Below, one piece after another: positions 7,213-63,999 of a stretch of DNA of 64,000 nucleotides. The position numbers and the translations under genes are program-made. This DNA is from a bacterium (GTDB lineage Bacteria > Cyanobacteriota > Vampirovibrionia > Gastranaerophilales > JBAXKC01), in the NCBI GenBank assembly GCA_037137535.1, contig JBAXKC010000001.1, positions 160,001 through 224,000 on the forward strand, read 5' to 3'. Each line of letters begins with the position of its first letter. The stretch's first letter is position 1. The notes below the pieces were generated by a model that worked only from the letters and a program-made list of their open reading frames with translations, searched no databases and was not told the DNA's origin.

Positions 7213-7851
7213 TTAAAGCTCATCATCAGGGAGCAAAATCTTGCCTTCTGCTACAGCTTCATTAAAAATCTCTTTCATTTTAGCTGAAATATGTCGACCT
7301 GCAAGACAATGCATATAAAATGGGGGAGGATTCTCATTTAATAATTTACAGAATTCCTCTTTAATTTTTTTTCTTTCTTCAGGATTTTCCAAGCGATCCC
7401 AACCTTCTGTAGACCAAAGAGGTAAACATTTAAAAGTTATTTGATTTAAAGGATTCTTTTTATTATAGTTATTAATTAAATCTACTTCAGAACTTATATA
7501 TTCTTCATTCTCAGGAGCCACAAAACTAATTATTGTATTAACTCCTTTATTCACAATATAACGAAATTCATTAGAGTTCTCAAGGCAACTGCCTTTATAC
7601 AAAAAATCAGAATGCACTTTTTCAAAGGCCTCTGGCTCTTGAATTCCGCTCGCTGTAAAACTTGTATTAATATTTTTAGAATTTATTAAAAAAAAAGCTG
7701 AACTATTATTTGAAGGAAACAAAGTCTTATCTTTATAACTACTTTTTAAACCCTGATTTTCATCTATATTATTTACAGTCGCATTCATTTTATTATTAGT
7801 TTTATTATTTTTTGTCATTACTGAAAAATTATAATTTTTAATATTTAACAT
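7213..7851 (-). CDS. Protein-tyrosine/dual-specificity phosphatase-like protein with degenerate P-loop
   Basis: LYKGS, GVNTIISF, PFYMHCLAGRHIS; start at MLNIK chosen from RBS spacing and the paralog. Confidence 0.65.
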   Translation of the reverse strand: MLNIKNYNFSVMTKNNKTNNKMNATVNNIDENQGLKSSYKDKTLFPSNNSSAFFLINSKNINTSFTASGIQEPEAFEKVHSDFLYKGSCLENSNEFRYIVNKGVNTIISFVAPENEEYISSEVDLINNYNKKNPLNQITFKCLPLWSTEGWDRLENPEERKKIKEEFCKLLNENPPPFYMHCLAGRHISAKMKEIFNEAVAEGKILLPDDEL

Positions 7852-7903
7852 GATTAACATCCTCCCAGTTGATTAAAACATATAAATCAAAGAAATTGCT
7901 TTT

Positions 7904-8534
7904 TTATAATTCTTCATCAGGGAGCAAAATCTTGCCTTCTGCCAAAGCTTCATTAAAAATATTTTTCATTTCATTAGAAATATCTATACCTGCAAGACAA
8001 TGCATATAAAACGATGAGGGATTTGTATTTATTATTTTGCAAAACTCTGCTTTTATTTTTCTCTCTGATTCGAATCTTTTAATCCGTTCCATGTTTCGGG
8101 AGCCCATAGAGGTAAGCACTTAAAAGTAATCTGATCCAGCGGATTATTTTTATTATAATTCTCGATTAAATCTATTTCTTTGTTAATATATTTGATTTTT
8201 TTAGGATCGACAAAACTAATAATTGTCTTAACTTTTTTATTCACTATATAACGAAATTTATCAGTATTAACAATACATTCCCCTTTATATAAAAAGCTGG
8301 GAGCTATTTCTTCAAAATTTTCAGGTTTTTGAATACCTGCGGCTGTAAAATTTGTCTTTATATTAATATTTTTAGCATTTATTAATAACCACTCGAAAAT
8401 AATGACTTGTCTTCATCAATACTTTGGAATTTTGAATTTTTATCAAACTCTATAGTCTTTACCTCTGCTTTTATAGGATTCTTTTTAGTATTTGTTAAAA
8501 CCGGCAAATTATTGTGATTTTTAATATTTAGCAT
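7904..8534 (-). pseudogene. Frameshifted tandem paralog of the 7213-7851 PTP-like gene
   Basis: Starts MLNIKNHN at 8534; frameshift near 8385-8400, resumes LLINAKNINIKTNFTAAGIQKPENFE...; second frameshift in an A-run near 8056-8060; ends FYMHCLAGIDIS...EGKILLPDEEL. Confidence 0.85.
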
Positions 8535-8588
8535 AACTCTCTCCTTCTTTGGTCATATTAAAGTGGCTAAATATTAAATTTGATACGA

Positions 8589-8629
8589 AAAACCTCTACA
8601 ATTAGAAAAATTCTTCTTGTAGAGGTTTT
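8589..8629 (-). terminator. Inverted repeat downstream of ppdK
   Basis: AAAACCTCTACAA...TTGTAGAGGTTTT. Confidence 0.7.
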
Positions 8630-8655
8630 ACTTATATTTATAAAATTAAACGAAA

Positions 8656-11340
8656 TTAGTGTAAAATAACTTTCCCTTTACCTTTTTCCTCAAGAACTGC
8701 ATGAGCCGCGGCTAAAATAGCAATAGGAACTCTAAAAGGAGAACAGCTTACATAGTTCAAACCTATACTATGGCAAAATCTTATGCTCATAGGTTCTCCG
8801 CCATGTTCGCCACAGATTCCAAGTTTTATATATGGTTTTTTAGAACGTCCTTTTTCTATGGCAATTTTCATTAGTTCGCCGACTCCTTCTTTGTCTAACG
8901 TTTCAAAAGGATTTTCGAGCAATATTTTCTTATCCACATAAGCACCGAGAAATTTAGCTTCAGCATCATCTCTGCTAAATCCAAAAGTCATTTGTGTAAG
9001 GTCATTTGTCCCAAAGCTGAAAAATTCAGCATATTCGGCAATTTGATCAGCAGTTATAGCCGCTCTTGGTATTTCAATCATAGTACCGAATTGGTAATCT
9101 AACTGAATATTTTTTTCATACATAACTTGTTTAGCCACCAGTTCTAATTGAGTTCTTGCAGCTTTTAGCTCGTTAGCATGCCCGACAAGCGGTATCATAA
9201 CTTCAGGATGAACATCTATTCCCTCAAGTTTAAGGTCACAAGCTGCTTCAAAGATAGCTCTCACCTGCATTTCATTTATTTCAGGATAAATAAGCCCTAA
9301 TCTACAGCCTCTAAGACCCATCATAGGATTAGATTCCTTAAGCTCCGAAATTTTATGAAGAAGCTGTTCTTTTTCATTAAGCAGTTCGGGATTATCCCCT
9401 TTAACTCTTAATGTAATAACTTCTGTCAAAATCTCTTCATAATTCGGTAAAAATTCATGCAAAGGTGGATCTAAAAGACGAATGGTAACGGGTTTATCCC
9501 TCATTGCCTTAAATATTCCTTTAAAATCGGTATATTGCATAGGAAGTAGTTTTTCAAGAGCTTCTTTTCTAGATTCAGGAGTTCCTGCAATAATCATTTG
9601 CTGAACAACAGGAAGTCTATCTTGAGCCATGAACATATGCTCTGTTCTGCAAAGGCCAACACCTTGAGCCCCATACAATAATGCTCTTGCTGCATCTTCA
9701 GGGGTGTCGGCATTAGCTCTAACTTCCAAACGCTTAACATCACCTGCCCAACGCAGAAGTCTAAGAAAATCATCGCCTAACTCAGGCTCAACTGTATTAA
9801 TAACACCTTCATAAACTTCGCCTAAAGCTCCATCAATAGAAACTATATCACCTTTATTAAAAGTTTTGCCTCCGGCAATAAGAGTTTCATTTGTCAAATC
9901 AACTTTTACTGATTCGCAGCCTGCCACACATGGTTTGCCCATTCCTCTAGCTACAACAGCAGCATGACTTGTCATTCCACCTCTTGTAGTAAGAACGCCC
10001 TGAGCTGTTATCATTCCATGTATGTCATCCGGACAAGTTTCTATCCTTGTAAGAATAATTTTTTCACCTTGTTTTGCACGTTCTTCTGCTTCATCGGGAT
10101 TAAAAACAATCACTCCAGTTGCAGCACCAGGTGAAGCGTTAAGACCTGTTGCAAGAAGTCGTCCTTCTTTTTTTGCAGCTTCTTTCGCCTTTAAATCAAA
10201 GCTTGGCAATAATAATTGAATAAGCTGTTCAGGATCAATAAGCTGTAATGCCCTTTCTTTAGTAATAATACCTTCTTTCTGAAGGTCAATGGCTATTCTT
10301 AACGCAGCTCTAGCCGTTCTTTTTCCTGCACGAGTCTGCAATACATATAACTTGCCACGTTCAATTGTAAACTCCATATCTTGAATATCTTGATAATGTC
10401 TTTCAAGCTTTTTAGCAATAGACACATATTGTTTGTACTGCTCGGGCATTTCTTTCGCAAGTTCTGTGATAGGTTTAGGCGTTCTAATCCCTGCAACAAC
10501 GTCTTCACCTTGAGCATTTACCAAATATTCACCATAGAATACATTTTCACCTGTTGAAGGATTTCTGGTAAAGGAAACGCCTGTTGCGGAATCATTTCCC
10601 ATATTTCCAAAAACCATAGCCTGAACATTAACAGCTGTTCCCAATCTATGATCAATTTTATAATGATTTCGATATGAGATAGCTCGTGGAATATTCCATG
10701 ATTTAAACACCGCTTCAATAGCAAGCTGTAGTTGCAATAAAGGATCTTGCGGAAAATCTTTTCCCGTTTCTTTCTGAATAATTTCTTTAAAAGCAAGAAC
10801 AACTTCTTTTAAAGCCTCTCTAACTAGCTCGGTATCTAAATTAACGCTATATTTTTGCTTTATTTCATCAAGTTTACAGTCAAATTTATCTTTATTAATA
10901 TGCAATACTACACAGCCAAACATTTGCAGAAAACGTCTATAACTGTCGTATGCAAATCTTTCATTATTTGTTTGAGCAATCAAGCCTTGAATCGTATTAT
11001 CATTTAAGCCTAAATTTAAAATTGTTTCCATCATGCCGGGCATACTTAATTTTGCCCCTGAACGAACAGAAATAAGCAGTGGATTTTTATAATCTCCAAA
11101 TACTTTTCCTGTTTCCTCTTCCACCTTTTGAAGAGCGGATTTTACATCGTCCATAATACCATAAGGCATTCTATTTGAATGGTTGATATAATCCATACAC
11201 GTTTGAGTTGTAATGGTAAAACCAGGAGGAACAGGCAGCCCTGCCCTTGTCATTTCAGCCAGATTTGCCCCCTTACCTCCAAGCAAATCTTTCATTTCCG
11301 CATTGCCTTCTCTGAATAAATAAACTCTTTGAAGTGCCAT
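8656..11340 (-). CDS. ppdK: Pyruvate, phosphate dikinase
   Basis: LGGKGANLAEM, SVRSGA, GGMTSHAAVVARG, GLCRTEHMF, SFGTNDLTQ, GICGEHGG. Confidence 0.98.
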   Translation of the reverse strand: MALQRVYLFREGNAEMKDLLGGKGANLAEMTRAGLPVPPGFTITTQTCMDYINHSNRMPYGIMDDVKSALQKVEEETGKVFGDYKNPLLISVRSGAKLSMPGMMETILNLGLNDNTIQGLIAQTNNERFAYDSYRRFLQMFGCVVLHINKDKFDCKLDEIKQKYSVNLDTELVREALKEVVLAFKEIIQKETGKDFPQDPLLQLQLAIEAVFKSWNIPRAISYRNHYKIDHRLGTAVNVQAMVFGNMGNDSATGVSFTRNPSTGENVFYGEYLVNAQGEDVVAGIRTPKPITELAKEMPEQYKQYVSIAKKLERHYQDIQDMEFTIERGKLYVLQTRAGKRTARAALRIAIDLQKEGIITKERALQLIDPEQLIQLLLPSFDLKAKEAAKKEGRLLATGLNASPGAATGVIVFNPDEAEERAKQGEKIILTRIETCPDDIHGMITAQGVLTTRGGMTSHAAVVARGMGKPCVAGCESVKVDLTNETLIAGGKTFNKGDIVSIDGALGEVYEGVINTVEPELGDDFLRLLRWAGDVKRLEVRANADTPEDAARALLYGAQGVGLCRTEHMFMAQDRLPVVQQMIIAGTPESRKEALEKLLPMQYTDFKGIFKAMRDKPVTIRLLDPPLHEFLPNYEEILTEVITLRVKGDNPELLNEKEQLLHKISELKESNPMMGLRGCRLGLIYPEINEMQVRAIFEAACDLKLEGIDVHPEVMIPLVGHANELKAARTQLELVAKQVMYEKNIQLDYQFGTMIEIPRAAITADQIAEYAEFFSFGTNDLTQMTFGFSRDDAEAKFLGAYVDKKILLENPFETLDKEGVGELMKIAIEKGRSKKPYIKLGICGEHGGEPMSIRFCHSIGLNYVSCSPFRVPIAILAAAHAVLEEKGKGKVILH

Positions 11341-11445
11341 AATCTAAAACTCCCTAAAATAAAATATTTCAATAATTTATACCACTATCGCAGTATAAAT
11401 TTATTCATCTTAGGACTAAAACATATAGACTAATATCCCCTATGC

Positions 11446-12084
11446 CTATTGAGCGAGTCTTTTTTTCAAATCTTTTAATTTCTGCATTTCAGAAGAAGAC
11501 AGCTCATTTGCATTACCTAAAACCTTTGTCCATAAGACGGTTTCAGCAAACATTTCAAGTGTTTCTACTACATAATAAGCATCTAATAAGTTTTTATTAC
11601 CTATAACAACTCCATGATTGGCCATTAAGACAACATCATTTTCTAAGAATTTTTCAGAAACAAAATCCGCTAACTCTTGTGATGATGGCATAGCATAACT
11701 TGCCACAGGAATAGAGCCAAGTGAAAGAACTCCTTCAGCAAGTACAGGCATATTCAAAGCCCTCCCTGCAATAGCAAAAGCCGTTGACTTAGGACAATGG
11801 GCATGAATTATACAACTTAGATCAGGTCGTTTTCTGTAAATTTCTAAATGCATATTTCTTTCAGAAGAAGGGGGCTTTCCACCTTCAAATTCGCCTGTTT
11901 CTATATTGATAATTGGAATTAAAGACGGTGTAACATCCCCAAGATTATATCCAGATGGAGTTATAAGCATATAATCATCTATTTGCACAGAAATATTACC
12001 TGATTTACCTGGGACAAATCCCTTATCATAAAGCCTTTTACCTATTTCACATATTTGCTGCTTTATAACTTCAAAATCTTTCAT
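11446..12084 (-). CDS. Class II aldolase/adducin family protein
   Basis: SGNIS, ITPSG, PSSERNMH, IIHAHCP, LMANHG. Confidence 0.92.
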   Translation of the reverse strand: MKDFEVIKQQICEIGKRLYDKGFVPGKSGNISVQIDDYMLITPSGYNLGDVTPSLIPIINIETGEFEGGKPPSSERNMHLEIYRKRPDLSCIIHAHCPKSTAFAIAGRALNMPVLAEGVLSLGSIPVASYAMPSSQELADFVSEKFLENDVVLMANHGVVIGNKNLLDAYYVVETLEMFAETVLWTKVLGNANELSSSEMQKLKDLKKRLAQ

Positions 12085-12166
12085 ATTTCCCCTGCTATAT
12101 TTTTTAAAACAATAACAATATTTTATACAAAAACATTCTTAGAGATAAGGGTAATTTAAACTATTT

Positions 12167-13045
12167 TCATTTAATCTTTAAAAACGGACTAATTTTTCCG
12201 TCTAAAATTCCTATGTTTATAACTTTTTTGTCTTTAGAAGCCGTAACAATTACATTATTATAAATATAAAAATCATATTTCTGTTTTTTCTCTACAGAAA
12301 ATTGCTGACCTTTCAAAGCTATAATGTTATCAGAGCGAACACTTGTGAAAGGAGTAATCCCTGCCCAACTTAACAGCCCTCCACTAAATTTAAGATAAAG
12401 CTGTTTTACAGATGGAGTCAAAATCAAGTTTCCACTTATTCTATACTCAGAATTATTCAATTGAGAAGAATAAGGCTCAATAGCAGGATATAAAAGCCTA
12501 AAATCACTTTCAACAGTTTTTCCTACCTCAATATTTTCGGGATTAATCCTAACATTATCAGATTTTAAAAAAGTTGCTTTGTTTTTTAACGACTGGTAAG
12601 GCAAACCAAATAAATTCAGATTAACAAAATATTCCTCTCCTTTAGGAGCTGAAAAACTGAAATTCCCGTACTCATAATAATCAAAATCTCTGCTATATTG
12701 AGTATTTATACCGTTAGGATTACCATAAAGCCTAATCATATCTGCTTTTGATATATTATTAAGAAAGTCAAATTCAATCCAGTCCATTTTATTATTTACA
12801 AAACCGACTCTTATTTTTTGAAACTCACTTTCACCACTTGTATTAAAAACAATATTTTGTCCTGATGGAGGAGGTGCTTTGAATTTTGTTAATAATTCAA
12901 ACTCCTTTACAGTAGTTTTTCCAAAATTAATTTTTTCTAATCTATATTTTTCTAATTCATAAAGTTGCGGAACATTATCAGGAAATTTACATCCCAAAAT
13001 TAAAACTAGGAGGAAGAAAAAAGGCAAAAACCTATATTTTTTCAT
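12167..13045 (-). CDS. Putative lipoprotein with two-fold internal repeat
   Basis: MKKYR-hydrophobic-LILGC lipobox; KINFGKTT..F...MDWI vs NIEVGKTV..F...LSWA. Confidence 0.7.
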   Translation of the reverse strand: MKKYRFLPFFFLLVLILGCKFPDNVPQLYELEKYRLEKINFGKTTVKEFELLTKFKAPPPSGQNIVFNTSGESEFQKIRVGFVNNKMDWIEFDFLNNISKADMIRLYGNPNGINTQYSRDFDYYEYGNFSFSAPKGEEYFVNLNLFGLPYQSLKNKATFLKSDNVRINPENIEVGKTVESDFRLLYPAIEPYSSQLNNSEYRISGNLILTPSVKQLYLKFSGGLLSWAGITPFTSVRSDNIIALKGQQFSVEKKQKYDFYIYNNVIVTASKDKKVINIGILDGKISPFLKIK

Positions 13046-14538: not shown

Positions 14539-15135
14539 TTACTGATTAATGTGGTTTTCAATTATTAATTTAATTTTTTCTAAATCTTTTATTCCAGAAA
14601 AGATCTTTTTATTAGAGCCATCTTTAAAAGTCAAATAAATCAGATGTGCACTACCATAAACTTTTTTTGGCAATTCAATAGTTTTAATATCTGTATATGG
14701 TGTTACTAATATGTTTTTTTGTGTTTTAAAGAATTTAAAAGGAAAGCAAAATATTATTTTTTTATTGGTTAGAACTGTTTTAAGACAGCCTAAAAACAAG
14801 AAAAAAATTAAAGAAAGGAAGCTTACAACAACGAAAAAATACAAATTTTGTCGGTTTACAATATCAACTTCATTGATTCCTTTATAAATAAAAAAAGGTA
14901 GATTATATACACCAACATAACCACCAAACGATAATGGAGCCAAAAAGTTAAATAACCAACTAAACTTAGGTTCAAATATTATTACTTCATCTTGTTCTAA
15001 AGAATTATTAATTATTTGCAAAGCTTTTTTTCTACAAAAATGACTGTATAGATGATAAAGGAGGCAAAAAGTTATCGCAGAATAGAACCCTAATATATTT
15101 GGAATATTAATCACAGTTGATAATGTTTTAGGCAT
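14539..15135 (-). CDS. Hypothetical membrane protein with C-terminal bacterial PH-like domain
   Basis: Three hydrophobic segments then VLTNKKII...PYTDIKTIE...LTFKDG. Confidence 0.65.
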   Translation of the reverse strand: MPKTLSTVINIPNILGFYSAITFCLLYHLYSHFCRKKALQIINNSLEQDEVIIFEPKFSWLFNFLAPLSFGGYVGVYNLPFFIYKGINEVDIVNRQNLYFFVVVSFLSLIFFLFLGCLKTVLTNKKIIFCFPFKFFKTQKNILVTPYTDIKTIELPKKVYGSAHLIYLTFKDGSNKKIFSGIKDLEKIKLIIENHINQ

Positions 15136-17098: not shown

Positions 17099-18688
17099 TT
17101 ATAAGAAAGCTTGAAGTTTTTTCTTTGGCTCGGCTTGTGAAGTAGTGGAATTACAATCTGCATAAGCCTTTAAGCCTGGAGATACACTTGTACCTGTTCT
17201 GTGTTCCCTGAAAATATATTGCAATTTAGGTAATAAATAACCTAGGGAAATACTACATAATGCCATATTTAAAATCGTCATTCCGCCTTTTAATACTTTT
17301 GTCTTAGTAATAAGTGAATCGAGTGCTTTTTCTTCATTAATAGCCTTTCCAGCCTTATTTATAAAGTTACCGACATGATCATATAGATTTTTTAATTCAC
17401 TAACTTCAATAAACTTAGACGGATTTAAAATATGTTTTCCATCTTGCTCTATTACTTCAATAATTCCCATTTTCTGAGCGGTTTTTAGTAATTCATCAGT
17501 AAATTCACCTGTTTTATTATTTAAATTGCCTGTAATAAATTTAATAACTTTTTCTTCATTAAATTTATTGTCTTTATTCGCATTTGCAAATATTTCCACA
17601 GGCTTAAAGTTTTTAAATAAAGCCTTATTATTATCAAGAGCTTTAAAGTCAAGATTAATAGGTAGGTTTATTTTATCTGCAATCGTTGCTAATCCGTCTT
17701 TAATTATTTTTGAAGCAAAGAAGAAAAAGAAAATAATTCCGCCTTCTCTTAAAGCTATTTCAGCTCTTTCATCATTATTTCTTGCATTTAAAACTCTACT
17801 TCCTGAAATTGCAAAATCAACAGCAATCATATTTCCGACAGGATCAATCTGAGCAGAAGCTGCCTGATTTGCTAACTTGTCTATGATTCCGCCAAAAGCA
17901 ACCTGTTTTTTAGAATGTTTTTCCAGTATTGCCGTAAAGGTAGTATTTTTTGCAGGAACTGAAAGTGCCATGCCTTGCTGTAAAGATTGACCTGCAAGAT
18001 TTGGATAATTTGATTTTGTAGAGGGCTCTTTACTTCTTTTTTCTTCAATAAGTTTTTTAGTTAATCCTTGATTAAACTTAGGAAGAGCATAAGCAAGAAA
18101 AGCAAAAGGAACTAAAGTTGAAACAACTAACTTTGCAATATTATAACTCTTATACTTTGATTTATTAAGAACACCAAGTCCTGCTTTAAGAATTTCTTCT
18201 TCTGAAGCATTTTTATTTTTAAGAATGGTTTTTCCTAATTCTATAAATTTATTTTTATTGTCGCCTAAGCCCGCCACAAGTTTTCCATAAGCGTTTTCAT
18301 CTTTAAGATAAGCACTTATTAAATCCTGGTTGATTCCGTGTGAAAAGCATTGAACGCCTTCACTATTTATTTTTTTAAGTGATATATGCGGATTTATATC
18401 CTTGAAAGCCGGTATTAATGATGAAACTTTATCAAAAGCCCATCTACAAGCAGGGATACCGCCAAGCCAGACTACTGAAGTCCCGACTTCTTCTATAAAT
18501 CTTTCTCTTGCCTCATGAACTCCACTTTCTTTGGAGTGTTTGCTTCCCTCATTGTATGCCATAGTAGTTCTGCCGCATACATCAACCATATCTTTGGCTC
18601 CAACCAGCCATAGAGAAGAAGGATTGTCCAGATTGGACATAATAGGCGTAATGACTCTGCCTACTGTTGGAAGTGTTAAATTAATCAT
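17099..18688 (-). CDS. Hypothetical membrane-associated protein with two homologous halves
   Basis: 529-aa ORF, RBS GGAGGGAG; hydrophobic segments; internal duplication (see findings). Confidence 0.8.
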   Translation of the reverse strand: MINLTLPTVGRVITPIMSNLDNPSSLWLVGAKDMVDVCGRTTMAYNEGSKHSKESGVHEARERFIEEVGTSVVWLGGIPACRWAFDKVSSLIPAFKDINPHISLKKINSEGVQCFSHGINQDLISAYLKDENAYGKLVAGLGDNKNKFIELGKTILKNKNASEEEILKAGLGVLNKSKYKSYNIAKLVVSTLVPFAFLAYALPKFNQGLTKKLIEEKRSKEPSTKSNYPNLAGQSLQQGMALSVPAKNTTFTAILEKHSKKQVAFGGIIDKLANQAASAQIDPVGNMIAVDFAISGSRVLNARNNDERAEIALREGGIIFFFFFASKIIKDGLATIADKINLPINLDFKALDNNKALFKNFKPVEIFANANKDNKFNEEKVIKFITGNLNNKTGEFTDELLKTAQKMGIIEVIEQDGKHILNPSKFIEVSELKNLYDHVGNFINKAGKAINEEKALDSLITKTKVLKGGMTILNMALCSISLGYLLPKLQYIFREHRTGTSVSPGLKAYADCNSTTSQAEPKKKLQAFL

Positions 18689-18709
18689 TGATTAGTTCTC
18701 CCTCCAACC

Positions 18710-30249: not shown

Positions 30250-30530
30250 TTATTACTCTCCTGAAATTGATTGTTTGCTATGAAGTATTCAAATTATAAC
30301 TTAAAAACATTATGTTATCAAATATAAGTAAACCGCAATAGTAATTTATTATTCGATAGAACTATCTTGTTTATTAATTGACATAAAAACTTAATTTCCT
30401 CAAAATAACAAGACTAAGGTATAATTGACTTATTCTATATTAATTGCTTGATTTTATCTTAATTTTAATGAATTAAGTTTATAAATAAGTTATAGTAAAA
30501 TTAATACAGGTGGAGGAGTTGGGGGCACAA

Positions 30531-31661
30531 ATGAAAAAAATTATTTCATCGATTTTAATCCTTTCAATAATACTTTTAAATACTACAACAGCTTATGCAT
30601 TATCAACAGAAGAAGTTGCAAAAGCCTCTGACTCTAAAATAAAAACCATTGAAGGAAAAATTGAAGAAAATAACGAAATAGATAAAAAGAAAAATATTTT
30701 CACAGGCCAAACACAAGAAATAAAACAGGGAACTGCCATTAAAATGACGGTAACCTCAGTTTTAAGTTCAACCGTCAATCAAGAAGGAGATGAATTTTTT
30801 GCTGAAGTAACAAACGATCTTGATGCACCGGGAGGTGTTGCTATACCTCAAGGAACTATTGCTCATGGAAAAATTACCAAAGTAAGAAATGCTAAACGAT
30901 TAGGAAGAGATGCCTATATTTCATTAAATTTTGATTACCTTGTAACTCCGGACGGTCGTGAAATTCCTGTAAATGCAGAAATGAGTACTAAGCATCATGC
31001 TGTTACTTCCGTCGCTAAAGTAGCACTTGAAGATACGGCTTATACAATGGCTGGAGGAGTTATAGGCGGAATATTCGCATTAAAACTCTTTGGAATAGGC
31101 GGAGCAATTGCGAGTAACGGTTATACTGTAGCAGGTGGAGCAGGACTAGGTGCAGCAGTCGGTGTAACAGTTTCACTTGTAAGAAAAGGCTCTGATAAAC
31201 TTATTTCCCCAGGGGACGAAATAAAAGTAAAAATGGATTCCGGCATAAAAGTTCCGATTCTTACCGAAGAATCATTAAGACAAGATGAAACAAAGCTGGA
31301 TGGATTAAAAGTCGCTATCACTAATTGCCAATTAGAAAAAGACCCTTTTGGAGAGCCAAACACAATTACATTAAGTCTAAATATTGATAATAAAACCGAA
31401 AATACTTTTAGCAGTTTTGATATAGCATTAGTAAATGACTATAAGTCAGTCTTTTATGCTTCTCCTTTTTCAAATACTGATATGTGGTTTACTAAAATAG
31501 CTCCAAATACAAAATTAAACGGGAAACTTTCTTTTTCTGTTGATAATCCTAAAAGAAAGCATTGGTTAGTCTTTTACGATAGTATGACAAGAAAACCTCT
31601 TGCAAAAATCTCAATAGATAATGCACAAAAAGATCTTAGAAAGAAAAAAGCAAGTAAATAA
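30531..31661 (+). CDS. Exported protein: TrbI/VirB10-like beta domain, glycine zipper, C-terminal Ig-like domain
   Basis: Signal peptide MKKIISS..AYA; GDEFFAEV..IPQGTIAHGKI; GGAGLGAAVG; ITLSLNIDNKT. Confidence 0.7.
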   Translation: MKKIISSILILSIILLNTTTAYALSTEEVAKASDSKIKTIEGKIEENNEIDKKKNIFTGQTQEIKQGTAIKMTVTSVLSSTVNQEGDEFFAEVTNDLDAPGGVAIPQGTIAHGKITKVRNAKRLGRDAYISLNFDYLVTPDGREIPVNAEMSTKHHAVTSVAKVALEDTAYTMAGGVIGGIFALKLFGIGGAIASNGYTVAGGAGLGAAVGVTVSLVRKGSDKLISPGDEIKVKMDSGIKVPILTEESLRQDETKLDGLKVAITNCQLEKDPFGEPNTITLSLNIDNKTENTFSSFDIALVNDYKSVFYASPFSNTDMWFTKIAPNTKLNGKLSFSVDNPKRKHWLVFYDSMTRKPLAKISIDNAQKDLRKKKASK

Positions 31662-32341
31662 TGAGCCAAATTTCTATAACTAAAAAAATAATCAATAAAA
31701 ACAATAAACAAATAGAAGTTTTTGTTGTTCCTGCAATGTCTTTTAATCAAGCAGACGGAACAATAAAAACTTTTCCGCATCCACATGGGAATAACTCGCT
31801 AACATTTGAATCTCTTGAAAAAGCAATAAACAGCATTGCTATTTCCGGCTATGACTATATAACAGCAGAAAGCTCAACTAATATAACCGCAAATACAGAT
31901 ACAAAGCCAAACTTCAAACTTGCAATCATTGAGCTGATAAAATTATTAAATGATAAAAGCCCCGAAGTAATAGCCTCTGCTGCTTATGCTCTCGGAGAAA
32001 TGGCAACTCCTCTTGCATTAGACAGTTTAATAGCTCTTCTTGGCAATGATGAACACAATATCAGAAAAAACACAATCGAAGCCCTTGCAAAAATAGGAAC
32101 TCCGTCAATAAAAAAACTTATAAACGCCCTTGAAGACAGCAACTGGGTAAAAAGAAACTCAGCCGCTATCGCTCTGGGGGAACTTACGGATTATAACAAG
32201 CATTTGAATGTAACTCCTGCGGTAAATCCATTAATTGCAAGACTTCAAGATAATCAACCAATCGTAAAAAGTACCGCAGCAAGGTCTTTAGGTAAGATTT
32301 ATAAAAAAATTACCGAGCAGCGTGATTTTCAAAGTTTTTGA
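31661..32341 (+). CDS. HEAT repeat (PBS lyase-like) protein
   Basis: VIASAAYALGE, IRKNTIEALAKIG, KRNSAAIALGE, VKSTAARSLGKI. Confidence 0.88.
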   Translation: MSQISITKKIINKNNKQIEVFVVPAMSFNQADGTIKTFPHPHGNNSLTFESLEKAINSIAISGYDYITAESSTNITANTDTKPNFKLAIIELIKLLNDKSPEVIASAAYALGEMATPLALDSLIALLGNDEHNIRKNTIEALAKIGTPSIKKLINALEDSNWVKRNSAAIALGELTDYNKHLNVTPAVNPLIARLQDNQPIVKSTAARSLGKIYKKITEQRDFQSF

Positions 32342-32469: not shown

Positions 32470-32796
32470 TTAATCATTGTTTACTTTAGGTTGTTCTTGG
32501 TTTCGCTTTGTTCTTAATCCCAAATAATCAAATATAGCATAAGCTGCAACAGCAGCACTTAATCCAGCAACACATTTGCGCAAGATTTGTTTATTTTTAC
32601 ATGCTACTTCTTCTATAAATTCAGGGGTTTTAGCAATGGTCTTTTTTACAGAATCATTTAAATCAAGTTTATCTTGAATGGATTGTGTGATTGTCCCGGC
32701 AGTAATAATAGCAGCAGAAATAGATTTTGAATTATCCCAAATATCAGATTTAGACTGACTAATTATTGGTTTTGCTCCAAAAGACGGTATATTCAT
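32470..32796 (-). CDS. Small hypothetical protein with N-terminal PSFGA motif and two hydrophobic helices
   Basis: [19 protein letters not shown] and VAGLSAAVAAYAIF segments. Confidence 0.75.
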   Translation of the reverse strand: MNIPSFGAKPIISQSKSDIWDNSKSISAAIITAGTITQSIQDKLDLNDSVKKTIAKTPEFIEEVACKNKQILRKCVAGLSAAVAAYAIFDYLGLRTKRNQEQPKVNND

Positions 32797-32805: not shown

Positions 32806-33699
32806 CTATTTTTTATATTTTTTCAAATCTTCTTTAGTCATTGTTTTGTATTGCAATGAAGGCTCCTCGCACATTGCATGAAAGAAACCTATAAGTGTAG
32901 ACCCGGCAGCTTCAGTTACACCAGCAGCTACAGCTGCATTTAGAGCATTACCCGCTCCTGGGAACCAAGTGAAAAGTTTACTAGCAGTTTGAACACCTAC
33001 TGAACTTGCAGTGGTAACAGCAATAGAAGTCATTACTCCAGTAGATATAGGGTCAAGTCCGTAAACAGCAGCAAGTGATAAAGCCATAACTCCAGTAGCA
33101 GCCTGCAATGCTGCCATATCACCACCAGGTGCCTGTGCTAGTGCGGCAGCTATGCCTGCATTTGCAGCACTAGCTGCATGAACAATGCCCCAAGCTCTTT
33201 CGTCTCTTTCTTCTAATGTTAAACCTTTAAAAGAAAGCTTTCCCGTTTTTTTAGATTTTTCTACACCACCCATTCCACATTCGAGAATATTTTTCATTTG
33301 TTCTAATTCTTCTACCTTTTTAGGATCGGTTTCTTTTTTAATTTCTTTATTTAATTCTTTAATCCCTTTTTTGCAAATTCCTTGAATATATTCAGGGTGA
33401 GCCATTAATTCAATACCAATTTTTGTTGGTGGTACATTTTGTTGTAAATCTTGTAATTTCTCAGTTAGCTCTTCTTCTGATAATTCAGGAATTTCTTCCT
33501 TTTTACTCTTAAATGACAGATTTGTAAGACATTGAGCTTTTACAGCATGTCCTGCTTCCGCTGAACATAATAAATTTTTACCAAATGTTAAATTTGGCTT
33601 AACTTCTAGACTATTTTGCTTAGTTTTTTGTAAATCTTGTTTTTTAACCAAGTCTAAATTATTTGATAGGTTGCGGAGTGCGTTAAAATCTTTTAGCAT
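32806..33699 (-). CDS. DUF697/YcjF-like membrane-domain protein with long N-terminal extension
   Basis: IVHAASAANAGIAA..APGGDMAALQA..GVMALSLAAVYG...WFPGAGNALNAAVAAGVTEAAG; start at ATG 33699 (AAAGGA RBS, downstream of promoter). Confidence 0.75.
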   Translation of the reverse strand: MLKDFNALRNLSNNLDLVKKQDLQKTKQNSLEVKPNLTFGKNLLCSAEAGHAVKAQCLTNLSFKSKKEEIPELSEEELTEKLQDLQQNVPPTKIGIELMAHPEYIQGICKKGIKELNKEIKKETDPKKVEELEQMKNILECGMGGVEKSKKTGKLSFKGLTLEERDERAWGIVHAASAANAGIAAALAQAPGGDMAALQAATGVMALSLAAVYGLDPISTGVMTSIAVTTASSVGVQTASKLFTWFPGAGNALNAAVAAGVTEAAGSTLIGFFHAMCEEPSLQYKTMTKEDLKKYKK

Positions 33700-33741
33700 A
33701 CTTTTAAAATTTCCTTTTAATACAATTAAAGTCCGCATATT

Positions 33742-34029: not shown

Positions 34030-34380
34030 TTAATCACCATGCTTATAATCCCATTCACGGTCAAGATAATCTGTTTCACTCTTCACAAGGTCATTTAAGT
34101 ATGATGAAGCTTTTTCAGCAGGAGTATCACACGAACTCAAATAATAAGCTCTAAAATAATCTGCTGCAGGTTGTTTTTCTTTAACTTGAATTCCTGTTTT
34201 CTCTAAAGCAGCTTCAACTCTTTCATCTCGCCTATCAGCTGTTAATAAACTTGTCTTATCAAGTTGATAAGGGTTGCTATCATAATGTTTACCTATTCCA
34301 AGCTCTTCTGATAGATTTGACTTTTGCTCAGGAGTAAGAGGTTTTTTAAAAACAAAATTTGATCCAAAAGTTATATTCAT
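34030..34380 (-). CDS. Hypothetical protein with N-terminal ITFGS motif
   Basis: AAGGA RBS, 116 aa, own terminator. Confidence 0.7.
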   Translation of the reverse strand: MNITFGSNFVFKKPLTPEQKSNLSEELGIGKHYDSNPYQLDKTSLLTADRRDERVEAALEKTGIQVKEKQPAADYFRAYYLSSCDTPAEKASSYLNDLVKSETDYLDREWDYKHGD

Positions 34381-50476: not shown

Positions 50477-50481
50477 ATGTC

Positions 50482-57569: not shown

Positions 57570-57642
57570 GCGGGTGTAACTCAGTTGGTAGAGTGATAGC
57601 CTTCCAAGCTATATGTCGAGAGTTCGAGCCTCTTCGCCCGCT
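57570..57642 (+). tRNA. tRNA-Gly(TCC)
   Basis: GCGGGTG/CGCCCGC; ATAGC-CTTCCAA-GCTAT; T-loop TTCGAGC. Confidence 0.95.
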
Positions 57643-57665
57643 ATTTTTATATTTTATAATATTAT

Positions 57666-57742
57666 GGCGAGTGTCGCCAAGTGGTCAAGGCATCGGTTTG
57701 TGGTACCGATATGCGTGGGTTCAACTCCCATCACTCGCCCCA
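57666..57742 (+). tRNA. tRNA-His(GTG)
   Basis: G-1, GCGAGTG/CACTCGC, TCGGT-TTGTGGT-ACCGA, C discriminator plus encoded CCA. Confidence 0.96.
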
Positions 57743-57754
57743 TATATAATTTTA

Positions 57755-57781
57755 AAAGCTCCTTGTTTAGAGGAGTTTTTT
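57755..57781 (+). terminator. Terminator after tRNA cluster
   Basis: AAAGCTCCT...AGGAGTTTTTT. Confidence 0.7.
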
Positions 57782-57897
57782 AATGTTGTTTAATATTTCA
57801 TTTTAAAATGATAATAGCATTTTAAATTTACTCTGATTTTATCAGATCACCAAAATAAAGAGATGATTAAAGGATAATTCTTAATATTGCGATAAAA

Positions 57898-58499: not shown

Positions 58500-58632
58500 G
58501 TAATCTTTTCTTAGGCTCTATTATTAGATTTAAAATTAATATTTAAGTTTATAAAAAAGAGCTAGTAATACAAATTTGCTAATGCTTTAGCTTTTTTATA
58601 AAATATTACAATAATGCTTGTAGTTTTAATCG

Positions 58633-59763: not shown

Positions 59764-59785
59764 GAGCCTAATTAAACCACCGGAA

Positions 59786-59818
59786 TTATTTTATTGATGG
59801 GCTGAAGCCCTACTGACT
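59786..59818 (-). repeat. REP-like palindrome, copy 2
   Basis: TTATTTTATTGATGGGCTGAAGCCCTACTGACT. Confidence 0.65.
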
Positions 59819-59927
59819 CAATATTGAATAATATTGTAGCTACATGTTAATAATCAGTATATATAATCTTTTGGAGCATAAAAGTAAAAATAAATTTGGA
59901 TAAAATAATTTTACGAGGTGTTTTAAA

Positions 59928-60491
59928 ATGTCAAAAACAAATAAATCAATTTGGCAAGATATAGAAAAATCTTTAAATGAGCTTGATAAACAAGAGCTAA
60001 TCAATTTATTAAAAAATATATATGAAAAATCAACTGATACTGAAATGCTTATTAACGCAAAATTTGATAAAAAAAGTAAAAGAGTGTTGGAAAATTATCG
60101 AAAAAAAATCATCAAAGCTTTTATGACTGACAAAGAACCTCCTGAGTTGCCTAAAATAAAAGAAGGAATGAGTGCAATAAGCGACTATAAAAGTGCAACT
60201 AAAGATTTAGCAGGCACTATAGATTTGATAATAACTTATTCTGAGCATGCAATAAAATACTCTAATGAGCTTTGTTATGACGAAGAAGATCTTGAAAACA
60301 GCGTTTATGATCTTATGCAAGAAATGAAAGATATTATTTTAGAAAATAAAGCCGAAAGATATCTTGAATCTTTCAGCGATGAATTGCTAAAACTGCATAA
60401 ATTAGCGGATAAAGCAGAAGATTTTATGTTTGAAGCGTTTATAGGTGAAGCTTTAGAAGAAATAGGTTTAAAAGAAAGTGATGATGAATAA
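59928..60491 (+). CDS. Acidic helical hypothetical protein (DUF6155-like)
   Basis: LNELDKQELINLL, AISDYKSA..GTIDLIITY; GAGGTG RBS; overlaps next gene. Confidence 0.65.
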   Translation: MSKTNKSIWQDIEKSLNELDKQELINLLKNIYEKSTDTEMLINAKFDKKSKRVLENYRKKIIKAFMTDKEPPELPKIKEGMSAISDYKSATKDLAGTIDLIITYSEHAIKYSNELCYDEEDLENSVYDLMQEMKDIILENKAERYLESFSDELLKLHKLADKAEDFMFEAFIGEALEEIGLKESDDE

Positions 60492-62250
60492 ATCTATTCA
60501 GTATAAGTGGTTAGAAGCTCTTAAAAATACTAACCTTGATAAAAAACGGCTTAGTAGAGGTGAGGAATATGCATATTCCGGAAATATAACTAATTTAAGT
60601 ATAAATATAAATGAAGTTATAGCTGAAGTTGAGGGAAACTATGATAATTATGAAATTGAAATAAACTTTAAAAAATTATCGTCTAAACAAATTGAAACTC
60701 TTGTTAAAGTTATACAATCAAACCCTGAAATCTCTTCAGAACTTAGTATAGGAAATTTGCCTTATAAATTATTTGAATTATTGCAAGAAGAGAATATTTA
60801 TATTATTCCCAATTCATTTAACAGTCAGGGTTCATATTGTGATTGTCTGGATGATACAAGACCCTGTAAGCATATTATTGCTGTTTATTATGTTTTATCG
60901 CAAGAAATTTCAGGAAAACCTCTTTTGCTTTTTGAATTAAATGGAATATCGTTAAAAGAACTTTCTGAAAAGATAGAAATTCCTTTAGGCTTTGAATATA
61001 AGGCTGAAAAAACACTTAAGCAAAAAATGCAGGAAAGGTTAAAAGCTCTTTTAGATAAGGCAGATAAAGCTAAGCTAAAAGAAATAATTTTTGACCTGAC
61101 ATTTAGGTCAAAAGAGAATTACATCAAGTACCTTGATATAATTGAAGATAAAATAGGATTGGAAGACAATGAAAATACTGAAGTTGCTTCTGAAAAGTTT
61201 ATGTTTAATTGGGATAAATTAAAGTGGAAACTCAAAAAAATCGAAGAATATGGCTATGATTTTGACTATGATGAAGCAGAATCTCTGGATATAGAAGATA
61301 AATTTAATGAAATCATAGAGGAATTAGAGAAGAAAGAAGCTTCAAAGGAAGCACGCAAAGAATTTATTGATGAAGCTTTATCTTATATCATTTCTGATTT
61401 TGGCGGTGAAGTTATGGATACAATTTATGTTGCTTGTTATGATAAAGACGAGCTTTATTATTTCGCTGAAAATATTAGAAATAGCAATCCCGCAATGGCA
61501 ATGAAAGTCTATAAAAAGCTTTCAGATAAAAAAGAATATTTAAAATTAAGACGAGATAATCTTAAAAGTAACAGTGATTATTATGATTTAGTGCTGTTTT
61601 ATGAAGGAAACAATGAACCTCAAAAAGCAATAGAAACTGCTTATGAAGGATTGCAAAAAGTTCAATATTACAAAGGGGATTTGCAAGAATATTTAGCAGA
61701 AAAAGCCTTAAATTCTAATAATAGAGAAGAATATTTAAAATTAAAATTTGAGAAATACACTGATAAGCTTACTCTGCAAGACTATAAAAAATTTAAAAAT
61801 ATTTGTAATGATAAAGAATGGCAGCAATATGAGCCTAAGATTCTATTAAAACTCGAAAAACTTCATTCGAGTGATAGATTACTAATTTATATGCATCGAA
61901 AAGAATTTGAAAAGGCTGCTAATACCTTATTGGAATATTATTCTGGATATTATAATTTTAGACCAAAATCAATAAGTTTTTCCGTTGCGGAGGAGTTGAA
62001 AGACAAATACCCTGAAAAAGTTTTACAGTTTTATTTAAATTCTACTGGCGATCTTAATTCAGCTAAAGACAGAAAAATCTATGCTAATCAGGCTTTAATC
62101 GTATTAAAAATACAAGCTATATGGGTAAATGTGTTAAAAACCCCAGAAAAATGGCTTAACTTTGCTAAAGATGTAAAATATAAAAATAAAAACCGAAAAG
62201 CTTTTCAAGAAGAATTTAATAAAGTTATTCCTGATTGGAAACATTTGTAA
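60478..62250 (+). CDS. SWIM zinc-finger protein with C-terminal helical domain
   Basis: RLSRGEEYA, AEVEG, CDCLDDTRPCKHIIAVYY. Confidence 0.85.
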   Translation: MMMNKSIQYKWLEALKNTNLDKKRLSRGEEYAYSGNITNLSININEVIAEVEGNYDNYEIEINFKKLSSKQIETLVKVIQSNPEISSELSIGNLPYKLFELLQEENIYIIPNSFNSQGSYCDCLDDTRPCKHIIAVYYVLSQEISGKPLLLFELNGISLKELSEKIEIPLGFEYKAEKTLKQKMQERLKALLDKADKAKLKEIIFDLTFRSKENYIKYLDIIEDKIGLEDNENTEVASEKFMFNWDKLKWKLKKIEEYGYDFDYDEAESLDIEDKFNEIIEELEKKEASKEARKEFIDEALSYIISDFGGEVMDTIYVACYDKDELYYFAENIRNSNPAMAMKVYKKLSDKKEYLKLRRDNLKSNSDYYDLVLFYEGNNEPQKAIETAYEGLQKVQYYKGDLQEYLAEKALNSNNREEYLKLKFEKYTDKLTLQDYKKFKNICNDKEWQQYEPKILLKLEKLHSSDRLLIYMHRKEFEKAANTLLEYYSGYYNFRPKSISFSVAEELKDKYPEKVLQFYLNSTGDLNSAKDRKIYANQALIVLKIQAIWVNVLKTPEKWLNFAKDVKYKNKNRKAFQEEFNKVIPDWKHL

Positions 62251-62351
62251 TCGCCAAATCTCAGAAATTAAGATAATTATATCTCACAATATGTTTCTAT
62301 ATATTAAAATGATAATAGAATTTGAAATTCACTTTGGGTTCTTTCATGTGA

Positions 62352-62390
62352 AAAACCTCCGTTTTTTAATTTACTACTTTTCGGAGGTTT
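62352..62390. terminator. Hairpin between convergent genes
   Basis: AAACCTCCG...CGGAGGTTT. Confidence 0.55.
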
Positions 62391-62445
62391 ACACAAAATT
62401 ATTTATGGATTCTTAGGGGTTAAATTTATAGTTGATAAAATTTAC

Positions 62446-62835
62446 TTATTTGTTAACTTTAATATCTTTACTTGCTTGAATAGTTGCAAATAAGCCATTT
62501 ATTGACATTAGAAAGCCAAAAGCAATTACACCTACAGCCGCTCCTACAACAGCACCTTTTTTTAAAACACTCGGAAAATCAAGCTTTTTAGCTTGCATCA
62601 ATTTATCAACAAGCTCTTTTCCATATGATTCTATTCTTTCTATAGGTTTATTAGTTTTAATTTGTGATAGAAGTTCATTTTGTCTAAAGCCATCATATGC
62701 AGCTGTTAAAGCACCTGTAGTAGTGCCTATTGCAGTTGATGTCATTAACTCTGTTTGACATGGAAAAAGTTCTTTCTTTTTCTCTTTACTTGATGTAAAG
62801 GCTAAAGGCTGACTAAAATTAACTTTCATCATCAA
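62446..62835 (-). CDS. Small hypothetical protein with N-terminal LAFTS motif and two Gly/Ala-rich hydrophobic helices
   Basis: STAIGTTTGALTAA and GAVVGAAVGVIAFGF; GGAG RBS. Confidence 0.75.
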   Translation of the reverse strand: MMMKVNFSQPLAFTSSKEKKKELFPCQTELMTSTAIGTTTGALTAAYDGFRQNELLSQIKTNKPIERIESYGKELVDKLMQAKKLDFPSVLKKGAVVGAAVGVIAFGFLMSINGLFATIQASKDIKVNK

Positions 62836-62904
62836 AGCTCCATTTTTACTTATCTTATAATTATAAAAAAAACTTATAAAACAAAATTGCCTATTAATAC
62901 AATA

Positions 62905-63999
62905 TTAATCTTCTTCATGTAAAACTTGCATAATACTTGATACTTTCTCTGCAATACGCGTAGCCGCCTCTTGTTTTTCTTTTGTATTACAAACAACAGG
63001 TATTTTTAATATAGTAATATCATTAGCTATCTTACCCCAATCAATATTAGCGACTTTATCACCAAATTTACATAATTTATCAGCATTTATACTAAGTTTG
63101 CCAGTCCATGTTTTATTTAATACGGTACCAGTATCTTCAAAAGCTTGTCTGAAAATCTCATGTTCTCCATTTCTATAGCTATCTTTTATGCTTCTTCCAA
63201 CAGCTTGTGTTACACCTGCAGCAAGGGTTGCTGTTACAGCTGCACCTGCATAAGGAACCATTGTACCAACATCAATAGCCAAGGATGTATTCGATGCTAG
63301 CCATTGCAATGATTTAACTCCCATATTTGTAGCACTTGTTGCTGCATTTACCCCCATACATGCCCCAACAAGACATTGCATCATTTCACTTTCGCCGGGC
63401 ATGTAAACAGACGCCAAACTTCCTGCCATTAATATCTCATTTAATTGTAGAAAAGGAATATCAGCACCTGGCACTAAATGAAAAAATGTAGCAATTCCTG
63501 CAGCAAAACCAGTATGAAGATGTATTGCACTATTGGCTTCTTCATCCTCAGGATCTTCGCCAAACATCCATTCCCAAACACCTTTAAATTGAACTTCTTT
63601 ATGCTCATGCTCAGAAGAACCTTCGACATTACGTTGTTGCACTCTTAAAGGACTATGTTTCTTATTCGGGACTTGATCTAAGGCAAGCTCTGCCTCAAGA
63701 CTTTTAAGTCCAGCGTTTAAGAATTTATATTCCTCACATTTTCTTTTTTCTTCGGGAACAGAGTCTAAAGCTTTTTTTACAGCTTCTAATCCCAAAACAA
63801 GCTCAGTTTTAGAGATTTTACTGTTTGTACTTTTTAAATTCTTTTTACTAGGGGCGATTTCAATTGAAGTAGGAGTATTTAAACTTCCAAAATTTGTAGT
63901 TGCGTTGTATTTATACATATTTGCATTTTTAATTGCTGCTGCCTCATTATAAGAATACAATTGAATACTATTTTTAATTGCAACAGTATCTTTATTAAC
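62905..63999 (-). CDS. DUF697-like membrane-domain protein, paralog of 32806-33699; frame open to the window edge
   Basis: AIHLHTGFAAGIA..VPGADIPFLQL..ILMAGSLASVY...VPYAGAAVTATLAAGVTQAVG; no stop between 63960 and 64000. Confidence 0.75.
   Translation of the reverse strand, partial: VNKDTVAIKNSIQLYSYNEAAAIKNANMYKYNATTNFGSLNTPTSIEIAPSKKNLKSTNSKISKTELVLGLEAVKKALDSVPEEKRKCEEYKFLNAGLKSLEAELALDQVPNKKHSPLRVQQRNVEGSSEHEHKEVQFKGVWEWMFGEDPEDEEANSAIHLHTGFAAGIATFFHLVPGADIPFLQLNEILMAGSLASVYMPGESEMMQCLVGACMGVNAATSATNMGVKSLQWLASNTSLAIDVGTMVPYAGAAVTATLAAGVTQAVGRSIKDSYRNGEHEIFRQAFEDTGTVLNKTWTGKLSINADKLCKFGDKVANIDWGKIANDITILKIPVVCNTKEKQEAATRIAEKVSSIMQVLHEED

Follow-up and report, generated by a model that had tools for sequence, protein, structure and literature searches.

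The 64,000-nucleotide stretch analyzed here (the window; positions 160001-224000 of contig C1 of the genome under study, G000, which comprises 2.95 Mb in 81 contigs at 31% G+C) encodes several proteins that carry, near their N-termini or at domain boundaries, a short Phe-centered motif of the type SFG, SFKG or NFTA, raising the question of whether these words are read by the cell as a signal or simply reflect an A+T-rich composition. A preliminary description of the window, in which the motif was picked by eye, had proposed a lineage-specific secretion, chaperone-binding or protease-cleavage signal, and every string quoted in it is present in the sequence at the place given. In a sharpened form, the motif is real and occurs far beyond chance; it is a lineage-restricted signal, and very probably a functional targeting or docking tag.

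Enrichment of the motif at N-termini

Analysis of the 2705 non-overlapping open reading frames (ORFs) called genome-wide discloses VSF (71 seen, 20 expected; p 1e-18) and SFKG (20 seen, 2.5 expected; p 3e-12) as the most N-terminally enriched 3-mer and 4-mer, respectively, when residues 2-61 are compared with residues beyond 80 (5402 3-mers and 3582 4-mers tested), both outranking the hydrophobic words of signal peptides. The strict pattern [ILV][ST]F[KG][GSANT] is found in residues 2-25 of 18 proteins (shuffles, 4.2 ± 2.1; reversed pattern, 4), and a two-fold cross-validated matrix of 10 columns, with the consensus N-N-N-[NT]-[VIL]-[SA]-F-[KGTS]-[GAS]-N and a cut-off of at least 11 bits, retrieves 76 of the 2705 N-terminal regions, compared to 15 shuffled regions, 11 reversed regions and 7 of 1752 internal segments. 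The core regular expression, stripped of the composition columns, occurs 95 times at N-termini against 18.7 expected from the internal rate, whereas its mirror image occurs 23 times against 19.1 expected. The enriched zone comprises the first 60-80 residues (0.3-0.6 per 1000, compared to 0.14-0.17 per 1000 beyond residue 80) and extends past the extreme N-terminus. The N-terminal enrichment first suspected by eye is thus upheld across the genome for the sharpened motif, by k-mers, cross-validated matrix and core regular expression alike.

Within the window, the instances were scored with a 10-column matrix trained on the genome minus the window's own genes. The twelve instances comprise (i) six strong ones at 9.2-17.7 bits, including IPSFGAK (11.8), NITFGSN (11.7), NTSFTASG (12.8), KLSFKG (10.4), LAFTSS (9.2) and VAFGG (17.7), with a tail frequency of at most 1.3e-4 over 620,646 internal positions; (ii) three intermediate ones at 6.2-7.7 bits, including NLTFGK (7.7), TTNFGS (7.5) and VQFKG (6.2); and (iii) three weak ones at 1.6-4.7 bits, including NLSFKS (4.7), VNFSQP (3.6) and NTTFTA (1.6). 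By these scores the xSFG and xSFKG classes of the preliminary description stand, while its xNFTA class and several of its picks lie near background. A site of at least 9 bits within the first 90 residues occurs in 6 of 62 window ORFs (mean 0.9 and maximum 3 in 50 shuffles). All six fall among the 18 scanned ORFs that match no Pfam family, and the 42 that match one contribute none (hypergeometric p 3.7e-4, computed by hand); the orphans therefore do not equal the family-bearing background, the comparison on which the proposal had been made to hinge. The matches in ORFs 14539-15135 and 57593-57793 have the appearance of chance hits, since no polar leader is present. In addition, four of the seven window proteins put forward are not independent, since they belong to two copies of one two-gene cassette.

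Anatomy and coding nature of the leader

The composition, neighbor and signal-peptide counts that follow are based on 65 tagged proteins, that is, the 76 carriers minus 11 judged false positives because the motif forms part of a housekeeping domain or of a signal peptide (ClpB, Met aminopeptidase, RNase HII, two AspRS pieces, MotA, MqnA, DUF2339, a porin, GNAT and a TPR lipoprotein). The leaders are rich in Asn (18% vs 7% elsewhere) and in N+S+T+Q taken together (41% vs 23%) and poor in acidic residues, with D+E at 5.6% compared to 10.6% elsewhere and returning to 13% right after the motif. The motif Phe is located at residues 9-81, ahead of residue 24 in 23 of the 65 proteins and ahead of residue 30 in 31, and an extra core motif is present in 9/65 compared to 158/2640 of the others. 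A Sec-type hydrophobic h-region (12-residue hydropathy mean of at least 2.0 in the first 40 residues) is found in 0/65 tagged proteins compared to 558/2640 others, no leader contains the RR of a Tat signal (0/65), and the leaders do not match a lipoprotein signal, a Cys in the leader or at most 5 residues past the Phe being seen in 7/65. A hydrophobic 16-mer after the motif, as expected for a type IV prepilin (class III) signal, is likewise found in 0/65, the true pilins of G000 reading KGFTLAEVLV. The motif closes an Asn/Ser/Thr/Lys-rich, acid-poor leader on mostly orphan proteins, and the earlier picture of an N/S/K-rich stretch on orphans with no evident Sec signal is borne out.

The leader is predicted to be disordered. 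The model of a tagged NrnA-like protein (mean predicted local distance difference test, pLDDT, 89.9) displays residues 1-45 as coil with pLDDT 40-51 and a fold that begins at residue 46, whereas the AlphaFold model of the 310-aa protein of the window cassette is poor (mean pLDDT 49) and was used solely to place the motif outside the confident fold, in coil with pLDDT below 50 before a helix at residues 175-199. The motif precedes the fold by 5 residues in these two models, so that its position directly before the folded part, as first described, is seen in both modeled cases.

The leader is translated, and the constraint acts on the peptide. The Ser codons of the motif comprise 35 TCN and 18 AGY, and its Gly codons track genome usage with no GGA bias; the use of both Ser codon families together with genome-like Gly usage points to the peptide, and not to the DNA or a ribosome-binding site, as the level of constraint. 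The called start is preceded by a Shine-Dalgarno sequence in 37/65 tagged genes compared to 1093/2635 others, no tagged gene (0/65) has an in-frame start with a Shine-Dalgarno sequence within 12 codons downstream of the Phe, and the 2171 leader codons are open in the coding frame while the other two frames contain 11.5-13.4 stops per 100 codons. Once stripped of the leader, the 76 carrier bodies form 65 BLAST components, of which 57 are singletons, and similarity of the 5'-region DNA is confined to paralogues (27/2080 pairs). A leader that is coding, acid-poor and predicted to be disordered, closed by a Phe that is invariant in diverged homologues, argues for selection on the peptide. The tag is a coding, conserved and modular element that does not occur together with Sec-type signals.

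Carriers, conservation and distribution in relatives

Among the 68 carriers scanned, 46 display no Pfam family at E ≤ 1e-4; the other eight of the 76 are three of five paralogues on contig C25, C2:180, C51, C68:2941, C80 and the window ORF 62446-62835, which was scanned separately. The domain-bearing carriers include an adenosine deaminase, a DHH/NrnA-type phosphoesterase, a LOG-like protein, a J-domain protein, two nucleotidyl transferases, a PTP-type phosphatase, an AAA protein, a pentapeptide-repeat protein and an alpha-amylase-domain protein. Four of these, the adenosine deaminase, DHH/NrnA, LOG and J-domain proteins, coexist in G000 with an untagged paralogue and are thus extra copies, as would be expected of duplicates sent elsewhere. 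The carriers range from small proteins (35/65 at 230 aa or less) to ORFs of 997-1763 aa. A tandem set of five paralogues of 111-115 aa (C25:29118-30881), with an identical 24-residue leader ending QVAFSGN, is flanked by a 653-aa ORF with an internal motif and by a RecN-like gene.

Comparison of diverged homologues highlights the conservation of the Phe. Usual NrnA proteins comprise about 320 aa and lack a leader, whereas the homologues of the tagged NrnA-like protein (60%, 51% and 27% identity) display leaders that cannot be aligned and whose sole invariant residues are M1, N29, V38 and F40. Similarly, F170, the Phe of KLSFKG in the 310-aa DUF697-like window protein (32806..33738), stands in one of just nine columns that are invariant across nine homologues with 25-61% identity. 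A profile of this protein family collects 2595 relatives at E ≤ 1e-3, and in a profile search against 1.84 billion representatives 101 of 148 aligned relatives lack the motif segment and 29 keep the Phe in a [VIL][SAT]F context, which makes the motif an addition that one sub-family carries ahead of the helical core. Kept in diverged homologues, the motif is a functional signal of some kind, and in this general form the claim of a lineage-specific signal holds: the motif is lineage-restricted, position-specific and conserved.

The nearest kin of G000 among the compared genomes belong to the same order, and the compared set holds no member of the same family. In samples of 400 kb per genome, with shuffles giving 0.4-1.9 carriers, those of at least 11 bits number 4/417 in G015, 6/413 in G028, 6/359 in G031, 2/402 in G034, 3/415 in G045 and 0/374 in G088, and the core regular expression ranks the sampled genomes as the matrix does. 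The tag load reaches 2.8% in G000 compared to about 1-1.7% in the sampled relatives. The tag is present in at least three other families and is commonest in G000; these counts are small, and the genomes without tag signal have a higher G+C content, which confounds the comparison. Counts of the tag as a DNA pattern in G000 (41 vs 23) gave too weak a signal and were left unused for cross-genome counting. No description of the tag was found in the literature on secretion or motifs in Gastranaerophilales, Melainabacteria or Vampirovibrionia, subscription journals and preprint supplements lying outside the view of that search.

Candidate reader of the tag and alternative explanations

Export through one of two flagellar-type type III gates, with the tag as export signal, is the best guess, at roughly 0.35, because the rod and hook proteins of G000 themselves carry tag-like sites. 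The tag consists of a translated leader of 5-80 residues, predicted to be disordered, Asn-rich and acid-poor, ending in [Val/Ile/Leu]-[Ser/Ala]-Phe-[Lys/Gly/Thr/Ser]-[Gly/Ala/Ser], with the motif sometimes appearing two or three times per leader. Some 60 proteins with no other relationship to one another, about 2% of the proteome, have acquired it, and selection at the peptide level maintains it. A cytoplasmic receptor may read it as an extended peptide, in the manner of an address label, the likeliest destination being export via one of the two gates, where the tag would act like the docking region of rod and hook ('early') subunits. The enzyme duplicates that bear the tag, together with the membrane-active cassettes, would then be exported cargo.

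G000 encodes two complete export gates (FlhA, FlhB and FliP, two of each; C3:62223-67045 and C13:60-10372, also C21:47287-48312 and C7:23236-23808). One gate is a fliPQR-flhB-flhA operon, while the other FlhA is encoded in a basal-body-only operon comprising fliI, flhA, fliH, fliF, fliE, a lytic transglycosylase and rod genes. The second FlhB/gate type occurs in 31/31 genomes of the order searched, the first type is missing from one family, and genomes of the class generally carry two full-length FlhA genes. A preprint (10.64898/2026.04.24.720558) states that most Gastranaerophilales keep only flhB, fliI and flgG, 'postulated' to serve secretion. As regards other machineries, the type IV marker VirB4 and the type VI marker TssC were not found in G000, which encodes three secretins.

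The tag-like sites of the G000 rod and hook proteins read NTVGFKGS together with KVNFENIF, NTVAFKAQ, and DDVSFNGLL. Seven of ten early subunits rank within the top 17% of proteome scores, three of them within the top 6%, unlike the three late subunits. According to a study of Salmonella early subunits (Bryant et al. 2022, PMC8983047), these proteins combine an N-terminal hydrophobic signal with a gate-recognition motif (GRM) that docks at FlhB_C. In an exploratory, post hoc count, long leaders starting with at least two I/L/V, at least two S/T/N/Q and no acidic residue make up 15/42 compared to 332/2640 of the other proteins, and these starts resemble the hydrophobic signal as that study describes it (PMC8983047).

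Several observations weigh against export through a type III gate. The F-x-x-x-hydrophobic pattern of the GRM is not found, the +4 position being hydrophobic in 22/65 tags, equal to the 36% background after any Phe, and many tags may lie too close to the N-terminus for docking of the GRM type (the 23/65 with Phe before residue 24). The tagged genes are unlinked to flagellar loci (5/65 within 10 kb compared to 7.2% of other genes). Two genomes with two FlhA genes, G034 and G045, remain at or near background (shuffles, 1.4-1.9), although their G+C content of 45-51% may blunt the matrix (core regular expression, 5 vs 4.5 and 5 vs 1.9). In relatives, 80 loci around genes that encode only the cytoplasmic domain of FlhA (FlhA_C-only) show the tag at background (5/1276). 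Furthermore, the context columns of the matrix favor Asn, which makes the leader composition partly circular, and the 11 carriers judged false were dropped before the composition, neighbor and signal-peptide counts were made. The leader was also considered as a diverged rod-protein N-terminal domain, and this was rejected, with 0/62 leaders matching PF00460 (E up to 10) or any recurrent family. A predicted complex of the FlhB-2 C-terminal domain with the NrnA-like leader scored 0.00, run without controls, and counts neither way.

Directly upstream of the second FlhB gene on C21 lies a 403-aa ORF (L269:114-1325, minus strand) with an Asn-rich leader and YKFAFTGKP. A sigma-factor-like ORF stands beside it, and a 164-aa Gly-rich small protein is encoded on the other side.

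The tag could instead dock to another cytoplasmic receptor, most plausibly a TPR-repeat protein, perhaps together with soluble or membrane-anchored FlhA_C-only paralogues, and send proteins to a scaffold or cell site with export not required, an explanation that we consider possible but doubtful. TPR proteins bind short extended peptides, and the enrichment of TPR-like genes beside tagged genes suggests such a receptor (7/107 immediate neighbors compared to 2.1 ± 1.4 in random sets, none of 300 reaching 7; 11/198 within two genes compared to 4.2 ± 2.0, 0/300), although the association is post hoc, concerns 10/65 tagged genes only and could be explained by shared residence in accessory regions. 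The four FlhA_C-only ORFs of G000 (458-595 aa; C2:107681-109057, C34:182-1675, C27:25204-26991 and C60:3193-4608) resemble FlhA solely in its cytoplasmic ring domain (profile positions about 270-655), with hydrophobic segments ahead of it in two of the four, as read from the alignment by eye; two adjoin a TPR gene, and at one of these a tagged 111-aa gene stands next door (C2:105936-109057). The repeated motifs per leader (9/65 vs 158/2640) would suit a multimeric receptor that binds with avidity. The tag exceeds chance in the four genomes with an FlhA_C-only gene (G000, G015, G028 and G031; one to four such genes in every tag-bearing sampled genome) and at or near background in the three without one (G034, G045 and G088), but this co-occurrence comes down to two clades, with G+C content as a confounder, and the 80 FlhA_C-only loci without tag excess, drawn from the best of 544 relatives and mostly from Gastranaerophilales/Melainabacteria, count against this explanation as well. 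Less probable is a processing site, at which a protease, such as the C39 domain of one of the two C39-peptidase ABC transporters of G000 (about 700 aa) or another enzyme, would cut at or next to Phe-x-Gly, the leader being a propeptide, with export or with exposure of a new N-terminus. The motif ends in Gly/Ala/Ser like many cleavage sites (F-G-[GAS] in 6/65), over half of the carriers are small and the motif sits just before the fold in the two models; set against this, position -2 is Lys in 21/65 and the leaders are acid-poor, unlike double-glycine leaders, which are acidic amphipathic helices with Gly at -2, the carriers reach 1763 aa, and a single cut would hardly call for several motifs per leader.

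A conditional stability tag, in which cleavage exposes an N-terminal Phe or the leader itself is a degron, is very improbable. N-terminal Phe is a destabilizing residue for ClpS/ClpAP, and the invariant Phe and the disordered leaders would fit, but nothing else does; nothing points to a protease or to ClpS, and a degron on extra enzyme copies has no obvious rationale. The absence of any function is largely refuted and hardly tenable as an explanation. It would attribute the motif to A+T-rich composition, to wrong starts (a 5' untranslated region read as protein, with TTTAAAGGA as ribosome-binding site), to paralogy or to a copied 5' DNA cassette, and it can appeal to the low G+C content of G000, to FKG being usually written TTT AAA GGN and to paralogous carriers, such as the five C25 tandem genes and the cassettes. 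Nevertheless, the shuffled, reversed and internal controls are 5-10 times lower and the Phe is invariant across homologues of 25-60% identity. The untranslated-leader or ribosome-binding-site artefact is ruled out by the codon usage, by the Shine-Dalgarno sequences at the called starts, with none serving a start downstream of the Phe, and by the coding frame alone being open; a recently copied 5' DNA cassette is ruled out except among paralogues, and a single paralogous family by the number of BLAST components and singletons.

Type III export, as the preferred explanation, can be extended into a more specific and rather unlikely proposal. Gastranaerophilales may have made the flagellar-type type III apparatus, that is, the basal-body-only set kept by every genome of the order, into a general protein exporter with a sequence-defined tag (Asn-rich leader plus [VIL]-S-F-K/G-G), in which TPR adaptors and stand-alone FlhA_C rings would read the tag and hand to the gate about 60 cargo proteins, including extra enzymes, phosphatase-like and J-domain proteins and membrane-active cassettes.

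Genes of the window

The two-gene cassette is found at both window sites, on contigs C15 and C10, and in relatives. In copy 1, the first gene (32806..33738, minus strand) encodes the 310-aa DUF697-like protein, with three motif copies, NLTFGK (33577-33594), NLSFKS (33505-33522) and KLSFKG (33223-33240), the last one just ahead of the helical core. DUF697 (PF05128) matches it at E 2.5e-4 and 21.3 bits, under the 27.7 cut-off, and gives no match for the copy 2 paralogue (62905-63960). The second gene (32470..32796, minus strand) encodes a 108-aa small protein with Gly/Ala-rich hydrophobic segments and no Pfam family over the cut-off, which displays the tag MNIPSFGAK at its very N-terminus (about 32770-32790); the relative G018 has the same small gene, beginning MKINFKG. 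In copy 2, the first gene (62905..63960, minus strand) encodes a 351-aa paralogue that matches the 310-aa protein at E 1.1e-5 and carries TTNFGS near its N-terminus (63883-63900), which would lie 10 residues from an internal Met, and EVQFKG (63580-63594) ahead of the helical core, its Phe aligned with the invariant F170 column. The second gene (62446..62835, minus strand) encodes a 129-aa small membrane-like protein (19-mer hydropathy 2.21) with LAFTSS at residues 11-16 (62788-62805), which rises to 11.6 bits with the held-out matrix, and the weak VNFSQP just before it.

The 116-aa orphan 34030..34380 (minus strand) starts MNITFGSN (motif about 34357-34377) and has no Pfam family; a search for homologues among proteins of 63-203 aa returned only itself. 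The 529-aa orphan 17099..18688 (minus strand) has no N-terminal leader, with a stop codon directly upstream and the frame closed at 18692, and holds a strong internal site, KKQVAFGGI (17888-17902), its NTTFTA being at background. Two homologues (L219:14894-16582 and L232:14220-15896; 18-25% identity) carry an N/Q-rich leader ending [VI]SFKG, which is absent from the window copy.

The 215-aa PTP-like protein 7213..7860 (minus strand) comprises a 67-residue polar leader ending NINTSFTASG (7645-7668), with an N-terminal hydrophobicity of 0.62, that is, with no hydrophobic region. The family match proposed for it as an effector-like cargo is present, but was overstated: Y_phosphatase2 is matched at E 3.4e-4 and 20.7 bits, below the curated cut-off of 27 bits, and the Cys-loop reads HCLAGRH, which is not the C-x5-R of canonical PTPs. 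Beside the intact gene, a second PTP-like copy (7904..8534, minus strand) is a recent pseudogene, broken over three frames, that keeps the leader and IKTNFTAAG (about 8352).

The remainder of the window is mostly ordinary, with an NADH dehydrogenase operon, lipopolysaccharide and polysaccharide genes, PPDK and ABC transporters, and 42 of 50 scanned ORFs display a Pfam family at E ≤ 1e-5. Overlapping plus-strand ORFs at 59928-60491 and 60478-62250 (187 and 590 aa) have no Pfam family at this threshold; the larger contains a C-x-C...C-x-H stretch (SYCDCLDDTRPCKH), reminiscent of a SWIM-type zinc finger. Just upstream of cassette copy 1, a 383-aa ORF that starts with GTG and matches no Pfam family (30510-31661, plus strand) abuts a HEAT-repeat protein (31661-32341, plus strand).

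Comparison with known systems

The tagged carriers resemble the cargo of encapsulins and bacterial microcompartments (BMC), where a short motif is likewise placed on a disordered terminal extension of extra copies of ordinary enzymes; however, the motif differs from those known, and neither encapsulin (PF04454) nor BMC shell proteins (PF00936) were found in G000, which is rated 100% complete. Double-glycine leaders are similar in being short, N-terminal and ended by small residues, in a genome with two C39 ABC transporters, but the tag departs from their consensus in its low D+E content, its Asn richness, the rarity of F-G-[GAS] and the size of its largest cargo. Injectisome effectors have polar, Ser/Thr/Asn-rich, acid-poor and disordered N-termini with no conserved sequence motif. 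The tag resembles these signals in placing such N-termini on effector-like cargo (phosphatase-like, J-domain, pentapeptide and membrane-active proteins) and differs in its sharp motif; since the second gate is encoded together with rod, FliE and FliF genes, it belongs to the flagellar type and is not that of an injectisome.

The closest comparison is with early flagellar subunits. As these are described in PMC8983047, the tag shares with them (i) a Phe-centered motif, N-terminal, unstructured and unchaperoned-looking, tens of residues into the protein, (ii) small non-polar residues near the extreme N-terminus, often seen likewise in tagged leaders, and (iii) the location of the tag-like sites in the rod and hook proteins of G000, which lie where the Salmonella subunits have their FlhB-docking motif. 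It differs in the consensus, [VIL]-[SA]-F-[KG..]-[GAS] instead of F-x-x-x-hydrophobic, in the third of tags that lie within 24 residues, and in the approximately 60 non-flagellar carriers, with no linkage to flagellar genes. If the proposal of a general type III exporter is true, no earlier type III route would have had a recognizable consensus signal, and the cyanobacterial phylum would gain its first effector set of this sort.

The host is treated as a non-photosynthetic member of the Vampirovibrionia, probably of the Gastranaerophilales. This group is uncultured, includes bacteria associated with the animal gut and is sister to the photosynthetic cyanobacteria, and in this little-known group a one-line rule picks about 2% of the proteome, mostly unannotated proteins. 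A docking motif would point to a new hub, whereas an export signal would name a candidate secretome and give the partial flagellar gene sets retained in the order a testable job, much as Sec, Tat, sortase, PEXEL and RxLR, short address tags all, first revealed large sets of secreted or relocated proteins.

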